A DNA stretch of 64,000 bases, taken from contig CAVNZM010000001.1 in assembly GCA_963693365.1 (NCBI GenBank), positions 3,488,907-3,552,906 on the forward strand, given 5' to 3'. The notes under the pieces were generated by a model. It ran no database searches. It was not told the origin of the DNA and saw nothing but the letters and a program-made list of their open reading frames with translations. This document shows positions 1-25,747 of the stretch, piece after piece; position 1 is the first letter of the stretch, and every line of letters starts with the position of its first letter. The translations under genes were made by a program, and so were the position numbers. Origin of the DNA: Amoebidium appalachense. Its lineage: Eukaryota > Protista > Ichthyosporea.

Positions 1-734
1 TATTTTGAATGCCGTCAGCTCAGATTGCGCATGATAGCTAGCGAATCGAACCTGGTATCCACCTTGCACTTGATTGGTGTATACACGGACTATGTGGCAA
101 TTAGGACGCGTTAGCACTATAATATCGGAGGGAACTTTTTTGCTCGGTAAGTGATGCAGCCCCGCACAGCCCCGGCACCCGCTTGAAACTTTGCTCTAAC
201 CTCAAGCAGAGAAAAGTTTCGAAACCCACCACACTAGGAGTATTCCCGTTTTCCTATTACATCCATAGCATGGTAGAAAGCGTTGTAAAAGCTGCACCAA
301 ACAGCTGTTCAAATTAAAAATACCTTGATTTACTCCACGAGTTGGACTCAACAAAAACGGTCTGTCTTTACGTAAACCTTCACTAAAAATGAAGTTTATC
401 AATTTTTCACAGGCTGGCTCTAGGAGGTCTGTATGGCAACCTCTGATTGGTCACATTGACAAACGGCGGGAAAACTTCCCCGGCGGTTCAACGGTTGCTG
501 AGCCTCGAGCTCTGCAAAACCCCTGGGACAGGGTCGGCAGGTGGTCAGTTTCCCGTTGCGGGCAAATCGAAAGTTTTCTTGGTCTTATAAATAACTTTTT
601 TTAAAAGAAGCTACACTTGAAACTATCAACTTGTATATTTTCCGTTTAACGCCAAAGCCCGCCTTACGTTATTCCCTTGCGTTATTTCCACACACAAGTT
701 TTCCTTCCTTGTTCCTTCTATTTTTTCGACCACA

Positions 735-1580
735 ATGGAGAACCCCACCATTCAAACATCCGTTCCACGCACAGGGGAGCCCCTTAAGGACACTTTAAAC
801 ATCGCCCCCGCCGCAAACAACGACATCGTTGTGAAACCCACCTTCTCCTACGTTCCCCCACCCTCCGACTCCGAGTCCGAGCACTCGAGCGATGACGAGA
901 TTTACGACGATTGCTCTACCGTTCGGCGCAGAATCACGCAGTTTTTGGCCACTAAGGAGATGACTCTGACAGAGTTTATCAAGGCGATAGGCCTGAGCGG
1001 CACGGGACCCTACTACCGATTTATGAAGGCAAAGGGGAAGTACGGTGGGTCGGACAACAGCACTTACTTCAAGGCCTACCACTTCTTCGAGCACAGAAAC
1101 AAGGACAAGCCAAAATCTGCGAGCAGGAAGAAGAAGGAGAAGGAGAGAAAGGAGTACCGGGAGTTGGAGAAAAAGCGTGAGGAGCAGTATATTGCGGCTA
1201 TGCAGAAAGCGGCCAAAGAGCGTGAGGCCAACCCGATCGAAAACCTCCTTCACAAGTACGACATCAAGCGGCCCTCCCAGGCCAAGTTCGCGCAGGCGTT
1301 CGCCAGATGCAACGAGCAGACATATGCGCAGCTTGGCTTTGACAAGCTGAAACTTACACCCATGGAGAAATTGCTGGCCACCGTCGATCTTTCGGCGCTT
1401 GACCTCGTTTTGAACGACCCATTCAATGATCCCGTCACCCTCCCTACGTCGTACAAGTCTGCCAAGGCGGGAATCAACAGGTGGGCTGAAAAGGAGTTCA
1501 AGTATGAAACGCACAAGAAGTTGATTTTGCTGGTGAAGGAGGTGAGGGAGAAGGTGAGCAGCGGTCTGGCTGCTGCTTGA
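735..1580 (+). CDS. Intronless 281-aa protein with DUF7726-like domain and Lys/Glu-rich putative NLS/coiled-coil
   Basis: ATG-to-TGA ORF with coding-like composition. The segment IYDDCSTVRRRITQFL...TLTEFIKAIG...YYRFMK.KG.YGGSDNSTYFKAYHFFE resembles, from memory, the fungal/protist DUF7726 motif; no HMM search was run. Confidence 0.7.
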   Translation: MENPTIQTSVPRTGEPLKDTLNIAPAANNDIVVKPTFSYVPPPSDSESEHSSDDEIYDDCSTVRRRITQFLATKEMTLTEFIKAIGLSGTGPYYRFMKAKGKYGGSDNSTYFKAYHFFEHRNKDKPKSASRKKKEKERKEYRELEKKREEQYIAAMQKAAKEREANPIENLLHKYDIKRPSQAKFAQAFARCNEQTYAQLGFDKLKLTPMEKLLATVDLSALDLVLNDPFNDPVTLPTSYKSAKAGINRWAEKEFKYETHKKLILLVKEVREKVSSGLAAA

Positions 1581-3193: not shown

Positions 3194-9311
<6,118 letters not shown>

Positions 9312-9868
9312 TTTCTTCGTAAAGGAATATACTCAATTATTTTAGCTAGCTGCCAAGGTTTGTAAAGAAAACTCTAACACCTTTGATAATGAATAGGTGC
9401 AACGTTCTGCGGGGTTGATGGATGAGTAAACACAAATGTTGTTGACATATTTATCTACAGATTTTCAATCCGTAGAGCTGAATGCAAGCCCCTAATATAC
9501 CCCCATGCAAACAGAAAACTAAGAACTGGCATTTGCAGGACAATGCACGAGGGAGGTCTATACAGAAATCCTCGAATGTTTGAGAAAACTCTTCAGGGTT
9601 TTCATCACGAATCACTTATTGCACACGGAGTGAGTCAGCAAGGCTACACATGGATTGGAACGAAGCCTTCACACACACACACGAGAGCATGGGCTTTGTT
9701 GGGGAAGGCGCAGAATTTGGGGATCTTGGATTTGATTGGTAGCCTTAAATAGCGCTAGTTGGTTGGTCAAGAGCGCATCTTTGATAGATGAAGAAAATTG
9801 GGAACCCTGGGAACGGCCGCGGCACAGCGATTTATATTTTAGTCCATTTCATTGGTGTATGTATATGC

Positions 9869-10242
9869 TGTTGGACATCGTGTTCATAGAAGCTAGTTCT
9901 AGTGCACGTTGTTCCTTCTGTAAGTCAGAAATGATTGCATCTTGTGAGGCCAACCTCTGCTCCAGTAGTTGGACTAGTTGCTGCAACTGTAAGTTGTCAG
10001 ACATAGTGTCGTGTATGATGGGTAACTTGTCTATGTGTTTTGTGCACTGAAAACGACAGTAGAAAAGTGTAAATCAAACGTTCTGCTTCCCATCATACAC
10101 GACACTATGTCTGACAACTTACAGTTGCAGCAACTAGTCCAACTACTGGAGCAGAGGTTGGCCTCACAAGATGCAATCATTTCTGACTTACAGAAGGAAC
10201 AACGTGCACTAGAACTAGCTTCTATGAACACGATGTCCAACA
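9869..10242. repeat. Left terminal fold-back: 154-bp perfect inverted repeat (9869-10022 / 10089-10242) with 66-nt loop
   Basis: Reverse-complement identity by eye. The inner arm ends GTCCAACA immediately before the PBS, so it is U5-like. Confidence 0.95.
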
Positions 10243-13200
10243 GGGTTATGGGCCCCTCACGTAATGATTCCATCAAGTTCAAGGTCGACATCCCTCTCTT
10301 CACTGGCATTGATAATGATTCAGGCACGGACTACCACACATGGGCCGAAACCATGTATGTCCAGCTTTCTGGTGCTGGTCTTCTCCACACCATCGCGCCC
10401 AGTACGGAGCACCCGGCTACCCGTGAACAGGTCGACACTGCCCGTTCCTACCTGTGGCAAGCACTCTCGGTTGACGTGCGTTGTATCCTAGGGTTAACAC
10501 GCACCACCACACCTGCGGAGATATGGTCGGCCCTATCTGCCCACTACCTGGAGCAATCTGAGGCCAATCAGTACGACCTTATCGGGCTGTACATGAATTC
10601 TACGCCTGAACCTACGGACACCGCGACGAAATACGCCATGAAGCTCCGCGGCTACGTGCGACGCCTGGCCGATTACGGCACACAAATTGGTGATGCTCAA
10701 GTGCTGACCAAGCTCACCAACGACCTCGGCAAGGTGCCTTACTACGAAATGCCTGTCATTGCCTACAAGATGACACCCAAGCCTACCGTAATGGGCCTCC
10801 TCCAACAGCTACGGGCATATGAGACCAGCCACCCACGTGCACGTGTGACTACCAGCTCCGGGCCGGCCGCCTTCACCACACGGGCTCCTCAACCTGTCAT
10901 CTGCCACGGCTGCGGCAAACCAGGCCACATCAAGTCTCAGTGCCCCAACGGCAACGGCCAACACAGCAACTCTGGCAACAACCGTGCCAGCACCTACCCC
11001 AAGGGTTCCTGCGTCAACCACCCACTGTCTACCAGTCACACTACCGCCATGTGCAAGGGGGGCAACCGTGCCAACGGCCGCAAACCTAAGGGTGGTCCCC
11101 TCCCGCCTGGGTCCTGCATCAACCACCCAGCCTCTACTACCCACACTACGGCACAGTGCAAGGGGGGGCTGCCGCTCCCCGGGCTTTCCTCATGTCTAGC
11201 AACGACTGTGGCACCAACAAGGTGCTCCTCGACTCTGGAGCCACTGACCATGTGTGCCCCCGGCCCGATGTGTTCGTCAACATGCGTGCGGCGCCTTACT
11301 CCACGGTCCAAGTAGCCGACAAGGGTGCATGTGCAGTGCTTGGGGTGGGCGACGTGTTCTTTTCCAGCACCATCGACGGCGTTACTGCGGTGCATCAGCT
11401 GACGGATGTACTCTACGTGCCCTCCATCCCCGACACTCTCATCAGTGTGTTCACGGCATCTACCAACGGCGTTTTACCCCGCTTTGACACCCGCGGCGGC
11501 GTTCAGTTGTGCTACGGCGATCAAATTCTGGCCACCGGCTCGGCTGTCGGCACCAAGCTGTACCACATGGCGGTGTCTCTTCTGCGCGCGGACACAACCC
11601 CGGACGCCCAAACCACCACTGCTCCGCGTATCCTCAAGGTTACTGCCGACCTCAACACGTGGCACTACCGTCTGGGCCATGCTGGCATTGACGCTGTACG
11701 CTCGGTCATCAAGTCTGCAGGCCTGTTGGTGGGTGGCGGTGCCAAGTCTCCGGGTGTGTGTGAGCCCTGTGCCCTCGGCAAAGCCCACCGTGTTGCCTTC
11801 TCCGAATCAACTAGCCAAGCTCCCCGGGTCCTAGCCAAGGTTCACAGCGACATCAGCGGCCCCTTCCCTCCCGCGATCGGTGGTGCTCAGTACTTGGCGA
11901 CGTTCCACGACGAATTCACCGGCCACACCACGGCCGTGCCCCTCGTCAAGAAGTCGGACACACTGGCTGCATATGTGACGTACCACAAGGCGGCGGTTAC
12001 CCAACACGGTGTTCCCATGCAGGTGTTTCAGTCCGACGGGGGGGCGAGTACATGGGCACGGCCTTCGGGGACTACAACCGTGAGCATGGCATTCGCCATC
12101 AGATCACTACCACCGGCTCTCCTCAACAGAATGGGACTGCCGAACGACTGAACCGGACCCTCCTCGACATGGTTCGGGCACTCCTGCAGCAGTCCGGCCT
12201 TCCGGTGGGATTCTGGGCCGAGGCAGCTGTGACCGCGGCTTTTATACGCAACATGCTCCCGTCGCGAGCCACCGGCAGCCAATCGTCTCCCGCCCTGCTG
12301 TGGACCGGCATTCCTCCCGACTACAGCCGGCTCCGTGTCTGGGGCTCTCCCTGCTACGTCCATCAACAGGATACACCGAAACTGGCGCCTCGTGCCGTCA
12401 AGGGCATCTTCGTGGGCTACCCTCCTAACATCAAGGGCTACAAGGTCTGGATTCCAGCAGCACACAAGATGACCGTCAGCCGTGACGTGCAGTTCGACGA
12501 GGCTGCTATTCTGCACCCCCTCCGTGATGTCCCATCTGATTGGTCGACCGCACCGGCAATTCATCATTTTTTGGAGTCATCTGATTCGTCAAATCAGCCA
12601 GCCAATCACATCGTCCGGAATGATCAGCAATCTGATTCGTCTCGTCTGTCAGCCAATGGGACAGCGCCGAGTGATCAATTGGACATTCCGATCCTGCCCG
12701 AGCCTGCACATCGGCTCCCCCGGACGACCCGTAGTGGCGCTGTGTACAACGACCAACGTCGAGGCCCGACTGCCAACGTGGCTGCTGCTACGGCCCCCCT
12801 TGCCCCCCAGGCTACGGCTCCTGCATCAACACCCATCAAGGCTTCCACCATTGTTGTCCCCAAGACTGTCCGGGCTGCACTCAAGAGTCCCCAGCGTCTG
12901 AAATGGGAGGAGGCTGCACACCGTGAGCTCAAGGCCCTGGAAGACAACTGCACCTTCACCCTTGTGCCCCGTCCAGAGGATGGCTCCACTGTCATTCCGG
13001 TCGGCTGGGTCTTTACGGTCAAGCAGGACAACCGTGTCGGCAACGTCACTGCTTTCAAGGCCCGGCTTGTGGCCCGGGGCAACTACCAGCAGCCTGGCCA
13101 GGACTATTTCGTCACCGAGTCACCTGTGGCTGCGCTGGCTACCATCCGGCTGGTTTTGGCTACCTCCGTGGCCCAAGGTCTGCCTCTGCGCCACATCGAC

Positions 13201-14406
13201 GTCAACACAGCATTCCTCAACGGCACCGTCAACGAGACCATCTACATTGAGCAGCCCCCTGGCTTCGTCAACCCCTCGGCCCCCCATGCTGTCGGCTTGC
13301 TCCACAAGGCGCTCTACGGCCTAAAACAGGCACCGCGCCAGTGGTATGAGGCCCTCCGTGACCATCTCCTCGACCAAGGCTTCATTGTGAGTGCTGCTGA
13401 CCCGTGCCTGTTCATCAAGAATGCCGGGACCCCAACGTTTATTGCCCTTGCTGCCTACGTGGATGACTTCACCGTGACGGCCGCCACTGATGCGCTCATC
13501 GACGATTTTTTCACCAAGCTGGATGCTCGTTTCTCTGCCAAGGACCTGGGTCGTCCTACCCTGCTCATCGGGCACACTCTTACCTGGCTGGAGGACGGGT
13601 CTCTGCGTCTGGGCCATCGTCAACACATCATCGACTTGGCTGCCCGTTTTCGTCTCACCCACATGTCCGGCACCAAGACCCCCATCGTCCCGGGCCAGGC
13701 CAGTGAAAGCAACAAGACCCCAGCCTACAGCAAGAAGGAGGACTATGCCAGCCTGGTCGGTGCCCTGCTGTGGATTGCGCGTACCACCCGCCCCGACATT
13801 TCCCAGGCTCTGGGAGTCCTTACTCGACACATTCATGCGCCCACCGTCACCCACTGGACTATGGCTACCAGAGTTGTAAGCTACCTGCTGGCCACCATCG
13901 ACCTGGGTATTGTCTACCGTCCCGGCCCCCCCAACCTTGTTGGCTACTCCGACTCCGACTACGCCGAGGACCGCGACACCCGGCGCTCCACCACGGGCTA
14001 TGTCTTCTTCATCAACTCCTCCCCTGTGTCCTGGGTGTCTCGGCTCCAGTCCATCACCACCCACAGCTCCACTGAGGCTGAATTTGTGGCCATGTCTGCT
14101 GCTACGAACGAGGCCCTATGGCTCAACTATGTGATGGACGACCTGGGCCTTAATCCTATCAATGAGCCCACCCCGGTGCCCATCCATGGGGACAATGAGT
14201 CTGCCCGGGCCCTGCTGGACACCCTGGGGGTTAAGCCCAAGACCAAGCACATCGACGTCCGCTACTGCTCCGTCAAGGAACATCACCTGCTGGGCAACAT
14301 CACTGTGGTCCCGGTGGCTTCTGCTGACAACAAGGCCGACATGTTCACCAAGGCCCTGTCTGCCTCTTTCTTCACCAAGGCCGTGGGGATGCTCAACATG
14401 TGCTGA
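10107..14406 (+). CDS. Copia Gag-Pol polyprotein (coiled coil, capsid, zinc knuckles, protease, integrase, RT, RNase H), split by two apparent 1-nt deletions in G7 runs
   Basis: ATG at 10107. Motifs: CCHC knuckle CHGCGKPGHIKSQC; protease LLDSGATDH; integrase WHYRLGH..CEPC.LGK..VHSDISGP..SDGG(GEY)..QQNGTAERLNRTL; RT FKARLVARG..LYGLKQAPRQW..YVDD; RNase H GYSDSD..RRSTTGY..STEAEF..KHIDVRY..ADMFTK. Frame changes fall at G runs 11162-11168 and 12038-12044; adding one G to each joins the three ORFs. Confidence 0.9.
10244..10255 (+). promoter_or_regulatory. Primer-binding site 1 (copia/hemivirus type, internal tRNA-iMet fragment primer)
   Basis: GGTTATGGGCCC lies 1 nt after ...CCAACA and matches the PBS of Drosophila copia. 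Confidence 0.85.
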
Positions 14407-14592
14407 GCACCCGTCATCAACCAACTGCGCCCTCATACTTCAGGGGGGGGGAGAGAGTTGCATCCGACTGTGCAACTACGTGTACCATACTAAAATTGAG
14501 TAGGGGAATCTTTATTGTCTGTATTTTGTGCACCTGAAGCACTCGAGCTCAGTTGCATTAATTCATACCACAATTATCCAATTGAGTAGGGG

Positions 14593-15594
14593 TGTTGGAG
14601 TACACTGGTACTCCCGGCTAGCAATGTCTGTTAGAGAAAGTTTCTGAGCAATTGAATAACTGTTTCAACACTCACTCGAGTGCATAGAGCTTTTGTTTAC
14701 GGTCACATTCATATATGGTAGTTATATGTTTGAGCCAAAACTGTACCAATGACGAGCTTCACTAGCAACGTGCTAATTGTGCTCATTAATTAATATTCCC
14801 GGTTCAGATGATGTCCATGGAGTTCAGTCATGGAGTTAACACACTGAAAGCAGTAAAAAAAACGGGTCAGCGCCCAAGCGCGCCACGACGACCCTAGTCA
14901 CAGCGGACTCTACTTCCAACAGGGTTATGGGCCCAGACACGACACCGCGGCCTCTAACTTCACGTCCCCTACGACGCCTTGAACGGAGGAGCCAGAAACC
15001 GACTTCTAGGCTGTACCCTACACCCGCGAGCGTATTTCCGTGAAGTAGAGACTTTCGCTTCCACAAACTCCATCCGCAGCAGCCTGCGACATCAACGTCA
15101 AGTATTCCACTTCATTGGCGGGGCACGCACCACAGTGGAATGCACACCCCGGTCTACCCTGCAAGCAGCCACACTCACTCTCTCTTCTCTAGTGGTGTGT
15201 ACACTTCTCCAATTGGGTAGGGGTGTTGGAGTGCAGACTTACGCTCACTCCACAATATGTGTATGTTAGCTTTACAATTGGTTCCGTGTACACAGACACA
15301 CGCTGACACTCGATCACCACATGCACATCTGCATAGTTGAGGAATGTTGCCAATTGTGTTTTGACTGCAAACGATTGGTTCACTGGTCCCAGAGATCTCT
15401 AAATGAAAGTAACCAATCCGATTAGCGCCTGGCATCCGGATTACATTCCAGACTGCTGCCCCACGGGTATATAAGCCACGTCTCTGCCAGGTGCAGACAT
15501 GGAGTTAAGTCATGGAGTTCAGTCATGGAGTTAACACACTGAAAGCAGTAAAAAACGGGTCAGCGCCCAAGCGCGCCACGACGACCCTAGTCAC

Positions 15595-15625
<31 letters not shown>

Positions 15626-15846
15626 CATCATCTGAACCGGGAATATTAATTAATGAGCACAATTAGCACGTTGCTAGTGAAGCTCGTCATTGGTACAGTT
15701 TTGGCTCAAACATATAACTACCATATATGAATGTGACCGTAAACAAAAGCTCTATGCACTCGAGTGAGTGTTGAAACAGTTATTCAATTGCTCAGAAACT
15801 TTCTCTAACAGACATTGCTAGCCGGGAGTACCAGTGTACTCCAACA
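14593..15846. repeat. Right terminal fold-back: 223-bp perfect inverted repeat (14593-14815 / 15624-15846) with 808-nt loop
   Basis: The inner arm starts TGTTGGAGTACAC right after the PPT, so it is U3-like. The outer arm is its reverse complement, with no mismatch seen by eye. Confidence 0.95.
14816..15623 (+). mobile_element. cDNA copy of a full TRIM-like non-autonomous LTR element transcript (R-U5-PBS-internal-PPT-U3-R-polyA)
   Basis: R 14816-14901 repeats at 15511-15594, differing only in A-run length. U5 14902-14921 ends CCAACA. PBS GGTTATGGGCCCAG is at 14923-14936 and PPT GGGTAGGGG at 15215-15223. U3 starts TGTTGGAG at 15224 with TATATAA at 15468-15474. A 29-nt poly(A) is at 15595-15623. 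Confidence 0.88.
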
Positions 15847-16433
15847 TATGCATGTACAGTACTTGTTGTTGCCAGAGAAACAAATAATAGGTTTTTTTGA
15901 TTTTTGTGTTTAAATATTTCAGGCCAATACCGTATTGTCATATGGTTGAAAATGATGCTGCCTTCGCTGGTGCAACGGTTCAGAAAGTTTCACACCCTGT
16001 TTTGAAACTGTGCATGAAATCTGATTGGTCAACAGAGCATCGCTTTAAGCAGCACTAACAGTGGATATGTTCCTCGGGTGTTCTGCGTCTGACGCAAGAC
16101 CTGGCCGGCGCCAGCCCTGGCCGGCCCGGGGTAGCCACCGTGAGCGGTTGGGCGGCACTGCCATGGCAAAGCCTATTATTAGTCATCACTGAGTCACATG
16201 CGAAAGTCAGTAGTGATGGGACCGTCCGCTGGCACGTAAGTGTGGAGCCAAAAGCTCTTCTTTGCAAGGTTGCCTAGCAGAACCAGCGCAGAGCTAGCAA
16301 CCCAGTAACATAGATGCATCCTAATAATTTAAAATCCTCGAGCTCGAGCTCCGGCGGGTGTTGACATAATAAACATGTACTATGGGCGTTCGCCCACGGT
16401 GGAGGAAGGGGCGAGGGCGCGCGCGGGGGGGAA

Positions 16434-24047: not shown

Positions 24048-24717
24048 GGGAAGCCAACAGCACTCTCCCATACACCACCAACCAATCACACCGACACCCA
24101 ACAACATACGCACACACAGACCACCCATCACAATCTGTCAACAAAGCCCCCCCCCCCCCCCCCCCCCCCCGGCACCCACCCTCTCCCAAACACCTCTATT
24201 CCAACCCCCCCCCCCCCCTTTCCCCCTAGCACACACACAAGCCTTCACTACATAACCATAACCCCCCCCCCCCCCCCCCCCCCCACCACCACCACCAAAC
24301 ACCCACCCACCCACCCACCCACACCCACCTCAAGTGTGTAGGCACGCATGAGCTGCCAGACCACAGCCAGGGTGAGTGTCTTGTTTCCATCGTAGACGTC
24401 CTTGCCATCAATGCCCACCAGACTGAACTTGTGCTTGCGGCCCAGGTCCATTGCATAGCTGCAGTTTTCGATCTTGCGCATCGTGGCCCCCATGGCCTTG
24501 AACGGCGCCTGGTTGACTCGGTTCCACTCGACCGTGCTTGGGAACACCTGGGGAGAGAGTGCGTGTGTGCGGGGGGGGGAGGCCCGGGGGGGGGGGGGGG
24601 GGGGGGGGAGGGGGGGGGGGGTATCAAATTGTGTTAGCTGGGGTGCGTCTGTGTCTGTGTCTGGTGTCTCCTTTTCTCTCTCTCTCTCTCTCCCTCTCAT
24701 CTCTCTCTCTCTCACAT

Positions 24718-24748
<31 letters not shown>

Positions 24749-25085
24749 CTGTGTCTGCGTGTGTGTGCGTGCGGCACGTGTCTAATGTGCAGGCAAGCCG
24801 GCGTATGTGTCAGAATCGGCACCAGCCCACCGGTGCAAAATCTGGCCTGCGAAGCTGTGTGTGGGCCCCCTGAAATAGGACATGTATGCATTTGTATTAG
24901 ACATTCACTGTGTTCGCATACGTGCATGCCCACATGGAATGGGTGTGAGCCATGGAAGAGCGAGTGATGTGGCAAGAGGGTGATCAGTCAAATATGAGAC
25001 AAAGAAAAAGGTTGTGTGTTTGTGTACGTGTGTATGTGTGTGTACGTGTGTACGTGTGTGTGTGTACGTGTACGTGTACGTGTAC

Positions 25086-25131
<46 letters not shown>

Positions 25132-25747
25132 CTGTGTGTGTGCAGGCATGAAGGTTATGCATGTGTATGTACATACGCTTGTATGTGTGAGTGTGTGTTT
25201 GTGTGTGTCTGTGTGCGCGCGTGCGTGTTTGTGTGTGTGTGCGCGCGCCCGTGTACATGTATGTGTGCATCCATGCACACAGCGACTTGTGCCCACACCT
25301 TATCGAACAGCTGGATCAGAACCAGCCCATCGTGCAGGTCCTGGTAAAGGTGGCTGACGTAAGGCTGCACTCCCAGACTGTTCATCCAGTTGCGGAAAGC
25401 TGTGATGTTTAAACGTGTTAGAACAACAAAGCCCTTACGTATGCTTGGTGTGTGCATGCCTTGTATGTAAATTTGGACGTTTAAGGCCAAGGGGGAAGGG
25501 ACAGAGGTGTGTGCGCGTGTCTTGGCTTGGGAAAGGGGCAGAGGAGTGGGAGGTATGAGAGGTCCTCGGGAGGAGGAGGAGGAGGGGGGGGGGGGGGGGG
25601 GGGGGGGGGGATTGGTATGTTGTCCTTCGGTTAGCTTGATCCGAAGGGACAATGGTACGACGGAGTGAACCCGTGTAATAGCCGAGATGCAAGGTCTGTG
25701 TCAAAAAATGTGACATGTGTGAATGTACACAAAAGGGGAGGGGGATA

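Follow-up and report, generated by a model that had tools for sequence, protein, structure and literature searches.

A Ty1/copia element in the genome of the ichthyosporean Amoebidium appalachense carries, between inverted arms of its own U3, an insert with the layout of a polyadenylated RNA of a second, small and non-coding LTR family of the TRIM type. The window, which is the whole 64,000-nt stretch analysed (GCA_963693365.1, contig CAVNZM010000001.1, positions 3,488,907 to 3,552,906, forward strand), holds the copia element at 9869-15846 and the 808-nt insert at 14816-15623. The locus is probably the one-off product of a particle that contained both copia helper RNA and TRIM RNA, a statement that covers two possible routes jointly. 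In the favoured route, to which a probability of about 0.45 is given, the insert was reverse transcribed from a TRIM RNA that had primed the helper minus strand after a failed first strand transfer. The copia copy is without a promoter, because the 317 nt containing the TATA box are missing, and is predicted to be dead.

The copia element is enclosed by one 5-bp target duplication, TATGC, at 9864-9868 (+) and 15847-15851 (+), where a 5-bp match has a chance probability of approximately 0.001. Its left end is the inverted R-U5 of the copia LTR (9869-10093, minus strand), which at 225 nt corresponds to complete minus strong-stop DNA and ends at the putative RNA start. The 3' end of this DNA, CCCAT (10089-10093), matches ATGGG at 10018-10022 (+), which is the only ATGGG in 9869-10093 and the likely snap-back site; the pairing probability predicted for the two words with DNA parameters is 0.56-0.64. 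The second arm of this left hairpin, a copy of U5 at 10089-10242 (+), is identical to 9869-10022 at 154/154 positions, and the two arms flank 66 nt. PBS1 (10243-10255, +) pairs over 13 nt with the initiator tRNA-Met anticodon stem-loop and matches the antisense primer for this tRNA given in PMC1797187. It is followed by the remainder of the gag-protease-integrase-RT-RNase H region (10107-14406, +; gag ATG at 10107), with matches for gag, the protease region, integrase and RT to Pfam PF14223, PF22936, PF13976, PF13683, PF25597 and PF07727. This coding region is split over three frames, with one-base indels relative to other sequencing runs at G runs near 11161 and 12037; the related protein P0004 is a single frame of 1417 aa and is 85% identical up to the end. 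The RNase H part was recognised by its motif and by this identity to P0004. Downstream, the PPT1 junction (14578-14592, +), read from the sequence, leads into the first 223 nt of U3 (14593-14815, +), at which point the LTR is truncated; an ordinary LTR continues for 317 nt before R-U5. An inverted copy of U3 bases 1-223 (15624-15846, minus strand) closes the element, is identical to the first arm at 223/223 positions and provides the right integrase end.

Several further features of the helper were observed. The gag frame begins within U5 and reads through the PBS (10107-10260), the PBS part being translated as NRVMGP in P0004 too. In gag, a duplication of 59 nt (11004-11167) yields two C-x2-H-x7-H-x4-C motifs after the zinc knuckle, where P0004 has one. 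The PPT-like word AATTGAGTAGGGG occurs twice before the 3' LTR, at 14494-14506 and 14580-14592, 86 nt apart. The antisense of copia R (10027-10051) resembles 14515-14538, just before PPT1, a likeness reached by 1/1000 shuffles by alignment and by 7/300 by duplex energy; R of the copia RNA could pair with its own 3' untranslated part in the manner of a cyclisation signal.

The sequence-only reading had described the insert as a complete TRIM transcript in its RNA form, and the order R-U5-PBS-internal-PPT-U3(TATA)-R-A29 is indeed that read from the sequence at 14816-15623. The 5' copy of R (14816-14901, +) contains two 13-nt units and the A8 variant, and is followed by a 20-nt U5 (14902-14921, +) that ends in CCAACA. 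PBS2 (14922-14936, +) has a 15-nt match to the anticodon stem-loop of initiator tRNA-Met, with a chance probability of approximately 8e-7 within 808 nt, and it matches the antisense primer for initiator tRNA-Met in PMC1797187. The internal region (14937-15223, +) is non-coding and has PPT2 (15209-15223) as its last part. U3 (15224-15510, +) begins with TGTTGG and contains TATATAA (15468-15474), ACATGG (15497-15502) and one further repeat unit; the TATATAA/ACATGG pattern has one match in the window and none in 100 shuffles. The 3' copy of R (15511-15594, +), with the A6 variant, runs directly into a 29-nt poly(A) tail (15595-15623, +) at the place that U5 occupies in DNA copies, and one A at 14902/15595 can be assigned to either side of the R boundary. 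The two copies of R are identical except for A8 versus A6, and the A7 and A8 variants of TRIM R are both present among runs X14, X16 and X19. The word "complete" does not fully hold for the 5' end: R begins one 13-nt unit downstream of the start predicted from the TATA box of the TRIM, and the transcript therefore appears near-complete, unless the donor 5' LTR had fewer 13-nt units. Three such units lie at the TRIM start site (15498-15536), and their number and letters differ among copies in X4, X13, X14 and X16.

Both ends of the insert adjoin base 223 of the copia U3 and the insert has no target duplication of its own, as had been claimed. The inner junctions of the locus (10093/10094, 14815/14816 and 15623/15624) are those of the assembled sequence, with no contig counted across them. 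The features said to be common to the TRIM and the autonomous element were also recovered, with 20/20 nt in common at the U5 end and PBS and 31/35 nt at the PPT and U3 start, whereas the TRIM internal region has no similarity to the copia element (best local score 24, equal on both strands). The proposal that the TRIM is a co-packaged parasite fits this common PBS, PPT junction and ends, together with an equal spacing from TATA box to transcription start.

The ordinary form of both families is seen in contigs of other sequencing runs. The stretch or part of it is contained in 20/24 listed runs, and contigs of seven runs (X1, X4, X13, X14, X15, X16 and X19) were compared. Single contigs of X4 (5,144 nt) and X13 (5,043 nt) lead from pol through the PPT and U3 to the base at 14815, continue through 317 nt absent from the window, a gap equal in both, and then pass into R-U5 from 10093 (the reverse complement of the left arm and loop), the PBS and gag. 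The copia family thus has an ordinary direct LTR of 765 nt, collapsed by the assembler in both long contigs (2/2). Contigs of X15 and X1 likewise continue beyond the end of the U3 arm, and the fold-back is not the usual form of the family. Loose contig ends at 10093 in X14 and X15 have a TATA box 22 nt before ACATGG, a spacing counted by eye from 30 letters with the first T outside them, and TATA-to-ACATGG is likewise 22 nt in the TRIM. Because of this equal spacing, the left break of the window copy, 24 nt past the copia TATA box, is placed at the RNA start, and 9869-10093 is therefore taken to be the whole of the minus strong-stop DNA.

For the TRIM, U5 follows R directly, with no A-tail between them, in one contig each of X4, X13 and X15 (3/3 runs with long pieces listed), and A29 is therefore an RNA tail and not encoded in the LTR. 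A poly(A) encoded in ordinary TRIM LTRs was the observation that would have spoken against RNA capture, and the capture of an RNA of a separate small LTR family stands. In X15 the TRIM LTR end continues for at least 255 letters into other DNA, and free TRIM copies therefore exist, although no whole copy with two LTRs was seen among these contigs. TRIM LTR contigs are deeper than internal contigs. At the locus itself, contigs of X14 and X16 run from the right flank into the inverted arm, of which they include the outermost 29 nt, at depths of 37.9 and 45.7, respectively, and prove an insertion at the right flank, though an ordinary minus-strand copy gives the same contig. X14 also contains low-depth joints at 10242, 14921-14922, 15223-15224, 10678, 13300 and 14593, which link TRIM LTR end to TRIM LTR start, copia LTR end to TRIM LTR start, and copia U3 start to internal gag or pol. 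These joints may be two-LTR circles, tandem arrays, autointegration or nested insertions, and hint that both families are active.

Comparison with the other runs also reveals letters private to the window copy. In each hairpin the two arms carry the same letter where it differs from other runs (14706/15733 and 10232/9879), and each pair of arms was therefore copied from one template. Among 18 differing places tabulated, 14 differ from all covering runs, and 4 that vary among runs were excluded. Twelve of the 14 window-private substitutions lie within 10028-11504, and 12/20000 random placements were equally clustered, which suggests a mosaic of two helper templates, arising either from the capture event or earlier. 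There is an in-frame 3-nt difference at 13033, and the TRIM part has no fixed substitution relative to four runs. At several private positions the letter of the window was counted in no contig of X14 or X16, which speaks against the capture reading, though weakly, as rare variants tend to be lost from contigs.

The favoured route would proceed as follows. A tRNA would prime at PBS1, and the 225-nt minus strong-stop DNA would snap back on the 5-nt match, the structure being visible and the event presumed; this DNA would then be extended until its 3' end consisted of U5-PBS and would not jump to the 3' R. With the strong-stop DNA consumed by snap-back, the minus strand that was made over U3, pol and gag would have needed another primer. 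A co-packaged TRIM RNA may have used its poly(A) 3' end to prime the minus strand on helper RNA at U3 base 223, replacing the lost transfer. The plus strand primed at PPT1 would copy U3 bases 1-223 and continue through the RNA primer as it normally does through the tRNA, giving U3-T29-antisense TRIM. The left hairpin, in the role of plus strong-stop DNA, would anneal via its PBS to the minus strand in the second transfer. Synthesis from it would run through gag-pol and U3 until the template DNA stopped at base 223 and would then switch, end to end, to the displaced strand, and the top strand would thereby become U3, TRIM RNA, A29 and inverted U3, with both joins at one nucleotide. Integrase would accept the two true attachment ends although they are swapped, as evidenced by the 5-bp duplication. 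A single priming event at base 223 would thus place both junctions at one nucleotide, neither with a duplication, and the clustered private substitutions would be explained by a switch between two helper templates. PBS2 would be a passenger. One point speaks against the scheme: at base 224 of the template, where an ordinary U3 continues ATG, there is nothing for the poly(A) end to pair with, and a blunt or mismatched start is required; no paper was found for such a start from an RNA end. Self-priming of minus strong-stop DNA has been described for HIV-1, where self-primed products were undetected in particles (PMC6088434), and capture of RNA in LTR particles is also described (PMC5131818; PMC5408686).

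A tentative alternative within the same one-off capture is that TRIM strong-stop DNA primed at PBS2 was mis-transferred to the helper U3 at CATG, or that a plus strand stalled at base 223 jumped to the poly(A); PBS2 would then have been used once at most. The CATG at the 5' end of the TRIM matches U3 bases 223-226 except for one extra C, and this near-match, CATG against ATG, favours such a transfer, as does the finding that short matches are usual at animal capture junctions (25/29; PMC5131818). Under the poly(A)-primed route the same near-match would be chance, estimated at 1-3%, unless the two RNAs were held together by this self-complementary motif. The junction, however, holds one C beyond a clean microhomology join, and both of these variants need a second independent event at base 223 as well as a further jump onto the poly(A). 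The difference between A8 and A6 in the two copies of R is compatible with two TRIM RNA molecules, but A8 and A7 are natural variants, and a single donor with unequal LTRs fits too. It is unlikely that the TRIM arrived later, as cDNA entering a break at the centre of a copia element that had integrated with a perfect or short-looped U3 palindrome, through break repair or through a LINE acting on TRIM RNA. A cut at the centre of a palindrome leaves the same end on both sides and would explain the common nucleotide, and an 808-nt spacer would stabilise the inverted repeat; but, in contrast to LINE insertions, the insert lacks a flanking duplication and a T-rich nick site, and a minus strand starting at base 223 is still required. 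Arms identical at 223/223 and a TRIM without fixed substitutions relative to four runs also leave little time for two events.

An assembly artefact, in which an ordinary minus-strand copy or solo LTR occupies the site and the inverted interior derives from a stray molecule or misjoin, is very unlikely. At its outer ends an ordinary minus-strand copy would look no different, so that the X14 and X16 flank contigs fit either structure; no contig was counted across the inner junctions, and the private letters went uncounted in X14 and X16 contigs. Against this, the breaks fall on RNA landmarks (the putative start site, the end of R with poly(A), and the PPT start), places that an assembler would not be expected to single out, private letters are common to both arms, and the in-frame 3-nt difference at 13033 is atypical of read error. 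Least probable of all is a functional fold-back copia lineage, as proposed in the sequence-only reading, with minus DNA primed at PBS2, no need for strand transfer and the captured TRIM serving as a working part. A cycle of this kind can be set out as a diagram, with an intact PBS2 downstream of U3 and with perfect arms. The claim nevertheless finds no support, given that the contigs of the copia family have direct LTRs and the family manages without PBS2, and that the copy has lost the 317 nt holding the TATA box, with no TATA-like word in 9300-10242. RNA for the cycle would have to start left of 9869 and end right of 15846, and such read-through RNA would be expected to reach the 3'-end site in TRIM R-U5 before PBS2 and to fold into stems of 154 bp and 223 bp. 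The coding region has two frame breaks, and no second fold-back copy was seen among the contigs compared. The other suggestion of that reading, passive filler from switching by reverse transcriptase, is closer to the evidence, except that the TRIM RNA is likely to have had one job, at the birth of the copy.

The helper is a typical member of the Ty1/copia class in its domain order of gag, protease, integrase, RT and RNase H, its TG...CA ends and its 5-bp target duplication. Two direct LTRs are absent from the window copy but are seen in the family contigs of X4 and X13, and the window copy derives from a copia family by rearrangement. A replicating fold-back copia lineage was rejected as a class, with family contigs having direct LTRs and the part with the TATA box missing upstream of PBS1. 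DIRS-type retrotransposons have inverted terminal repeats around gag and RT genes. The window element differs from these in its DDE integrase, PBS, PPT, 5-bp duplication and direct-LTR family, and assignment to the DIRS type was rejected, as integrase domains and a target duplication are present and no recombinase was found among the Pfam hits of the three frames. A LINE-made retrocopy was likewise rejected for the insert; a tail is present, but there is no duplication and no T-rich site at 14815/15624.

The insert fits the TRIM class in having a PBS after the 5' LTR and a PPT before the 3' LTR. Its full size, computed from the captured parts as an LTR of 391 nt, an internal region of 302 nt and a second LTR of 391 nt, is 1,084 nt, which lies below the limit of 1,500 bp used in PMC4717578 but above the classical limit of 1,000 bp; 225/289 TRIM subfamilies in that study are below 1,000 bp. 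No retrotransposon protein was found in the TRIM, the longest ATG frame (86 aa; 1 of 6 listed frames scanned) having no Pfam match at the cut-off, and the TRIM has no likeness to helper coding DNA. As in the TRIMs and putative copia partners described by Gao et al. (2016, PMC4717578) and Kojima (2024, PMC10886601), the TRIM is short and non-coding, has two LTRs, a PBS and a PPT, and has priming signals and ends in common with a copia family; priming on the anticodon loop resembles that of Ty5 and Drosophila copia (PMC10886601). It differs in its size of approximately 1,084 nt (over the classical 1,000, under the 1,500 of PMC4717578) and in LTR bodies that are unlike those of the helper. It was, moreover, caught as RNA within a copy of the helper, whereas the passages available from PMC4717578 and PMC10886601 deduce the partnership from likeness and call it unverified.

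Related phenomena are known in other systems. In LTR-mediated retroposition (Tan et al. 2016, PMC5131818), foreign RNA is also reverse transcribed within an LTR element and inserted together with it, but the cases described there are partial mRNAs that replace internal sequence between direct LTRs via two short matches, whereas the window locus holds a near-whole RNA with poly(A) between inverted U3 arms and has no match at the poly(A) junction. The complex insertions of Sabot and Schulman (2007, PMC1950507) are alike in that one reverse transcription joined two RNAs and the integrated product lies within a single 5-bp duplication, but as described they unite two related full elements head to tail, with three direct LTRs and without inverted ends, poly(A) or a non-autonomous partner. 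In HIV-1 strong-stop self-priming (PMC6088434), the 3' end similarly folds back and is extended to a hairpin; there the hairpin is described as an in vitro dead end, whereas in the window such a hairpin seems to have escaped this fate and become integrated. Also known are recombination during reverse transcription (PMC6894440) and HIV-1 proviruses that are inverted or asymmetric (PMC9278108). In the open-access literature searched, with older subscription papers and supplements outside its scope, no integrated element with both ends folded back, integrated self-primed product or captured polyadenylated TRIM was found. The text available from the holozoan transposable element surveys PMC6875170 and PMC4007536 has no passage on PBS, TRIM or non-autonomous elements, and that from PMC12789967 and PMC5445492 contains nothing on fold-back or captured-TRIM elements.

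Searches outside the genome and for structural signals gave few matches. A metagenome scan for the common PPT junction and an IMG/VR scan for the U5/PBS motif each returned none, and a metagenome scan for the U5/PBS motif returned one locus (L001), which belongs to an unrelated element and has no inverted U5 on its upstream side; the scans thus gave no relative and too few loci for a survey of fold-back ends. Rfam gave no match over 9700-16000 at E 0.1, and folding z-scores of -0.7 (TRIM internal), -0.7 (TRIM R-U5) and -0.8 (helper R-U5) indicate nothing unusual. No dimer signal between TRIM and helper is claimed, the longest complement being 11 nt over the 4.7 kb compared, nor is pairing of TRIM R-U5 with the TRIM internal region, for which 71/300 shuffles were equally good. 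Elsewhere in the window, which is rich in simple repeats, a single long frame at 621-1580 (+) contains DUF7726 (E 4e-24), and the ORF at 735-1577 had no homologue by word search. Exons of a fimbrin/plastin gene lie at 24251-25700 (minus strand), with introns rich in microsatellites; the exon at 24332-24550 is 99% identical to a EukProt record and, among named matches, comes nearest to Capsaspora (70%), which on this one exon would make the host a likely protist, perhaps a unicellular relative of animals.

The locus is a variant of known LTR-mediated RNA capture not seen before in the literature searched, and is probably a single, dead copy and not a new replication system. Whether TRIM RNA ending in poly(A) can prime the helper minus strand and rescue a failed first transfer, with DNA of swapped ends then integrated and a locus that could silence both families, is a more doubtful generalisation. 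If true, it would give a locus with long hairpins of helper leader and U3 and a whole TRIM RNA, a natural silencer if a flanking promoter reads through. The locus also suggests that self-primed strong-stop DNA, a dead end in vitro, can be integrated, and shows that integrase reads just the two ends. Helpers of TRIMs have been proposed from sequence likeness, with the link described as unverified (PMC4717578) and the way it is maintained as unknown (PMC10886601). The present locus would be physical evidence of such a link, as TRIM RNA and its tail are fused in one integration product of a named copia family, and the features common to the pair are only the PBS, the PPT junction, the ends and the promoter spacing. 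It also maps a putative RNA start and a poly(A) site from DNA alone, and it identifies a helper and its parasite, both young, in a protist.
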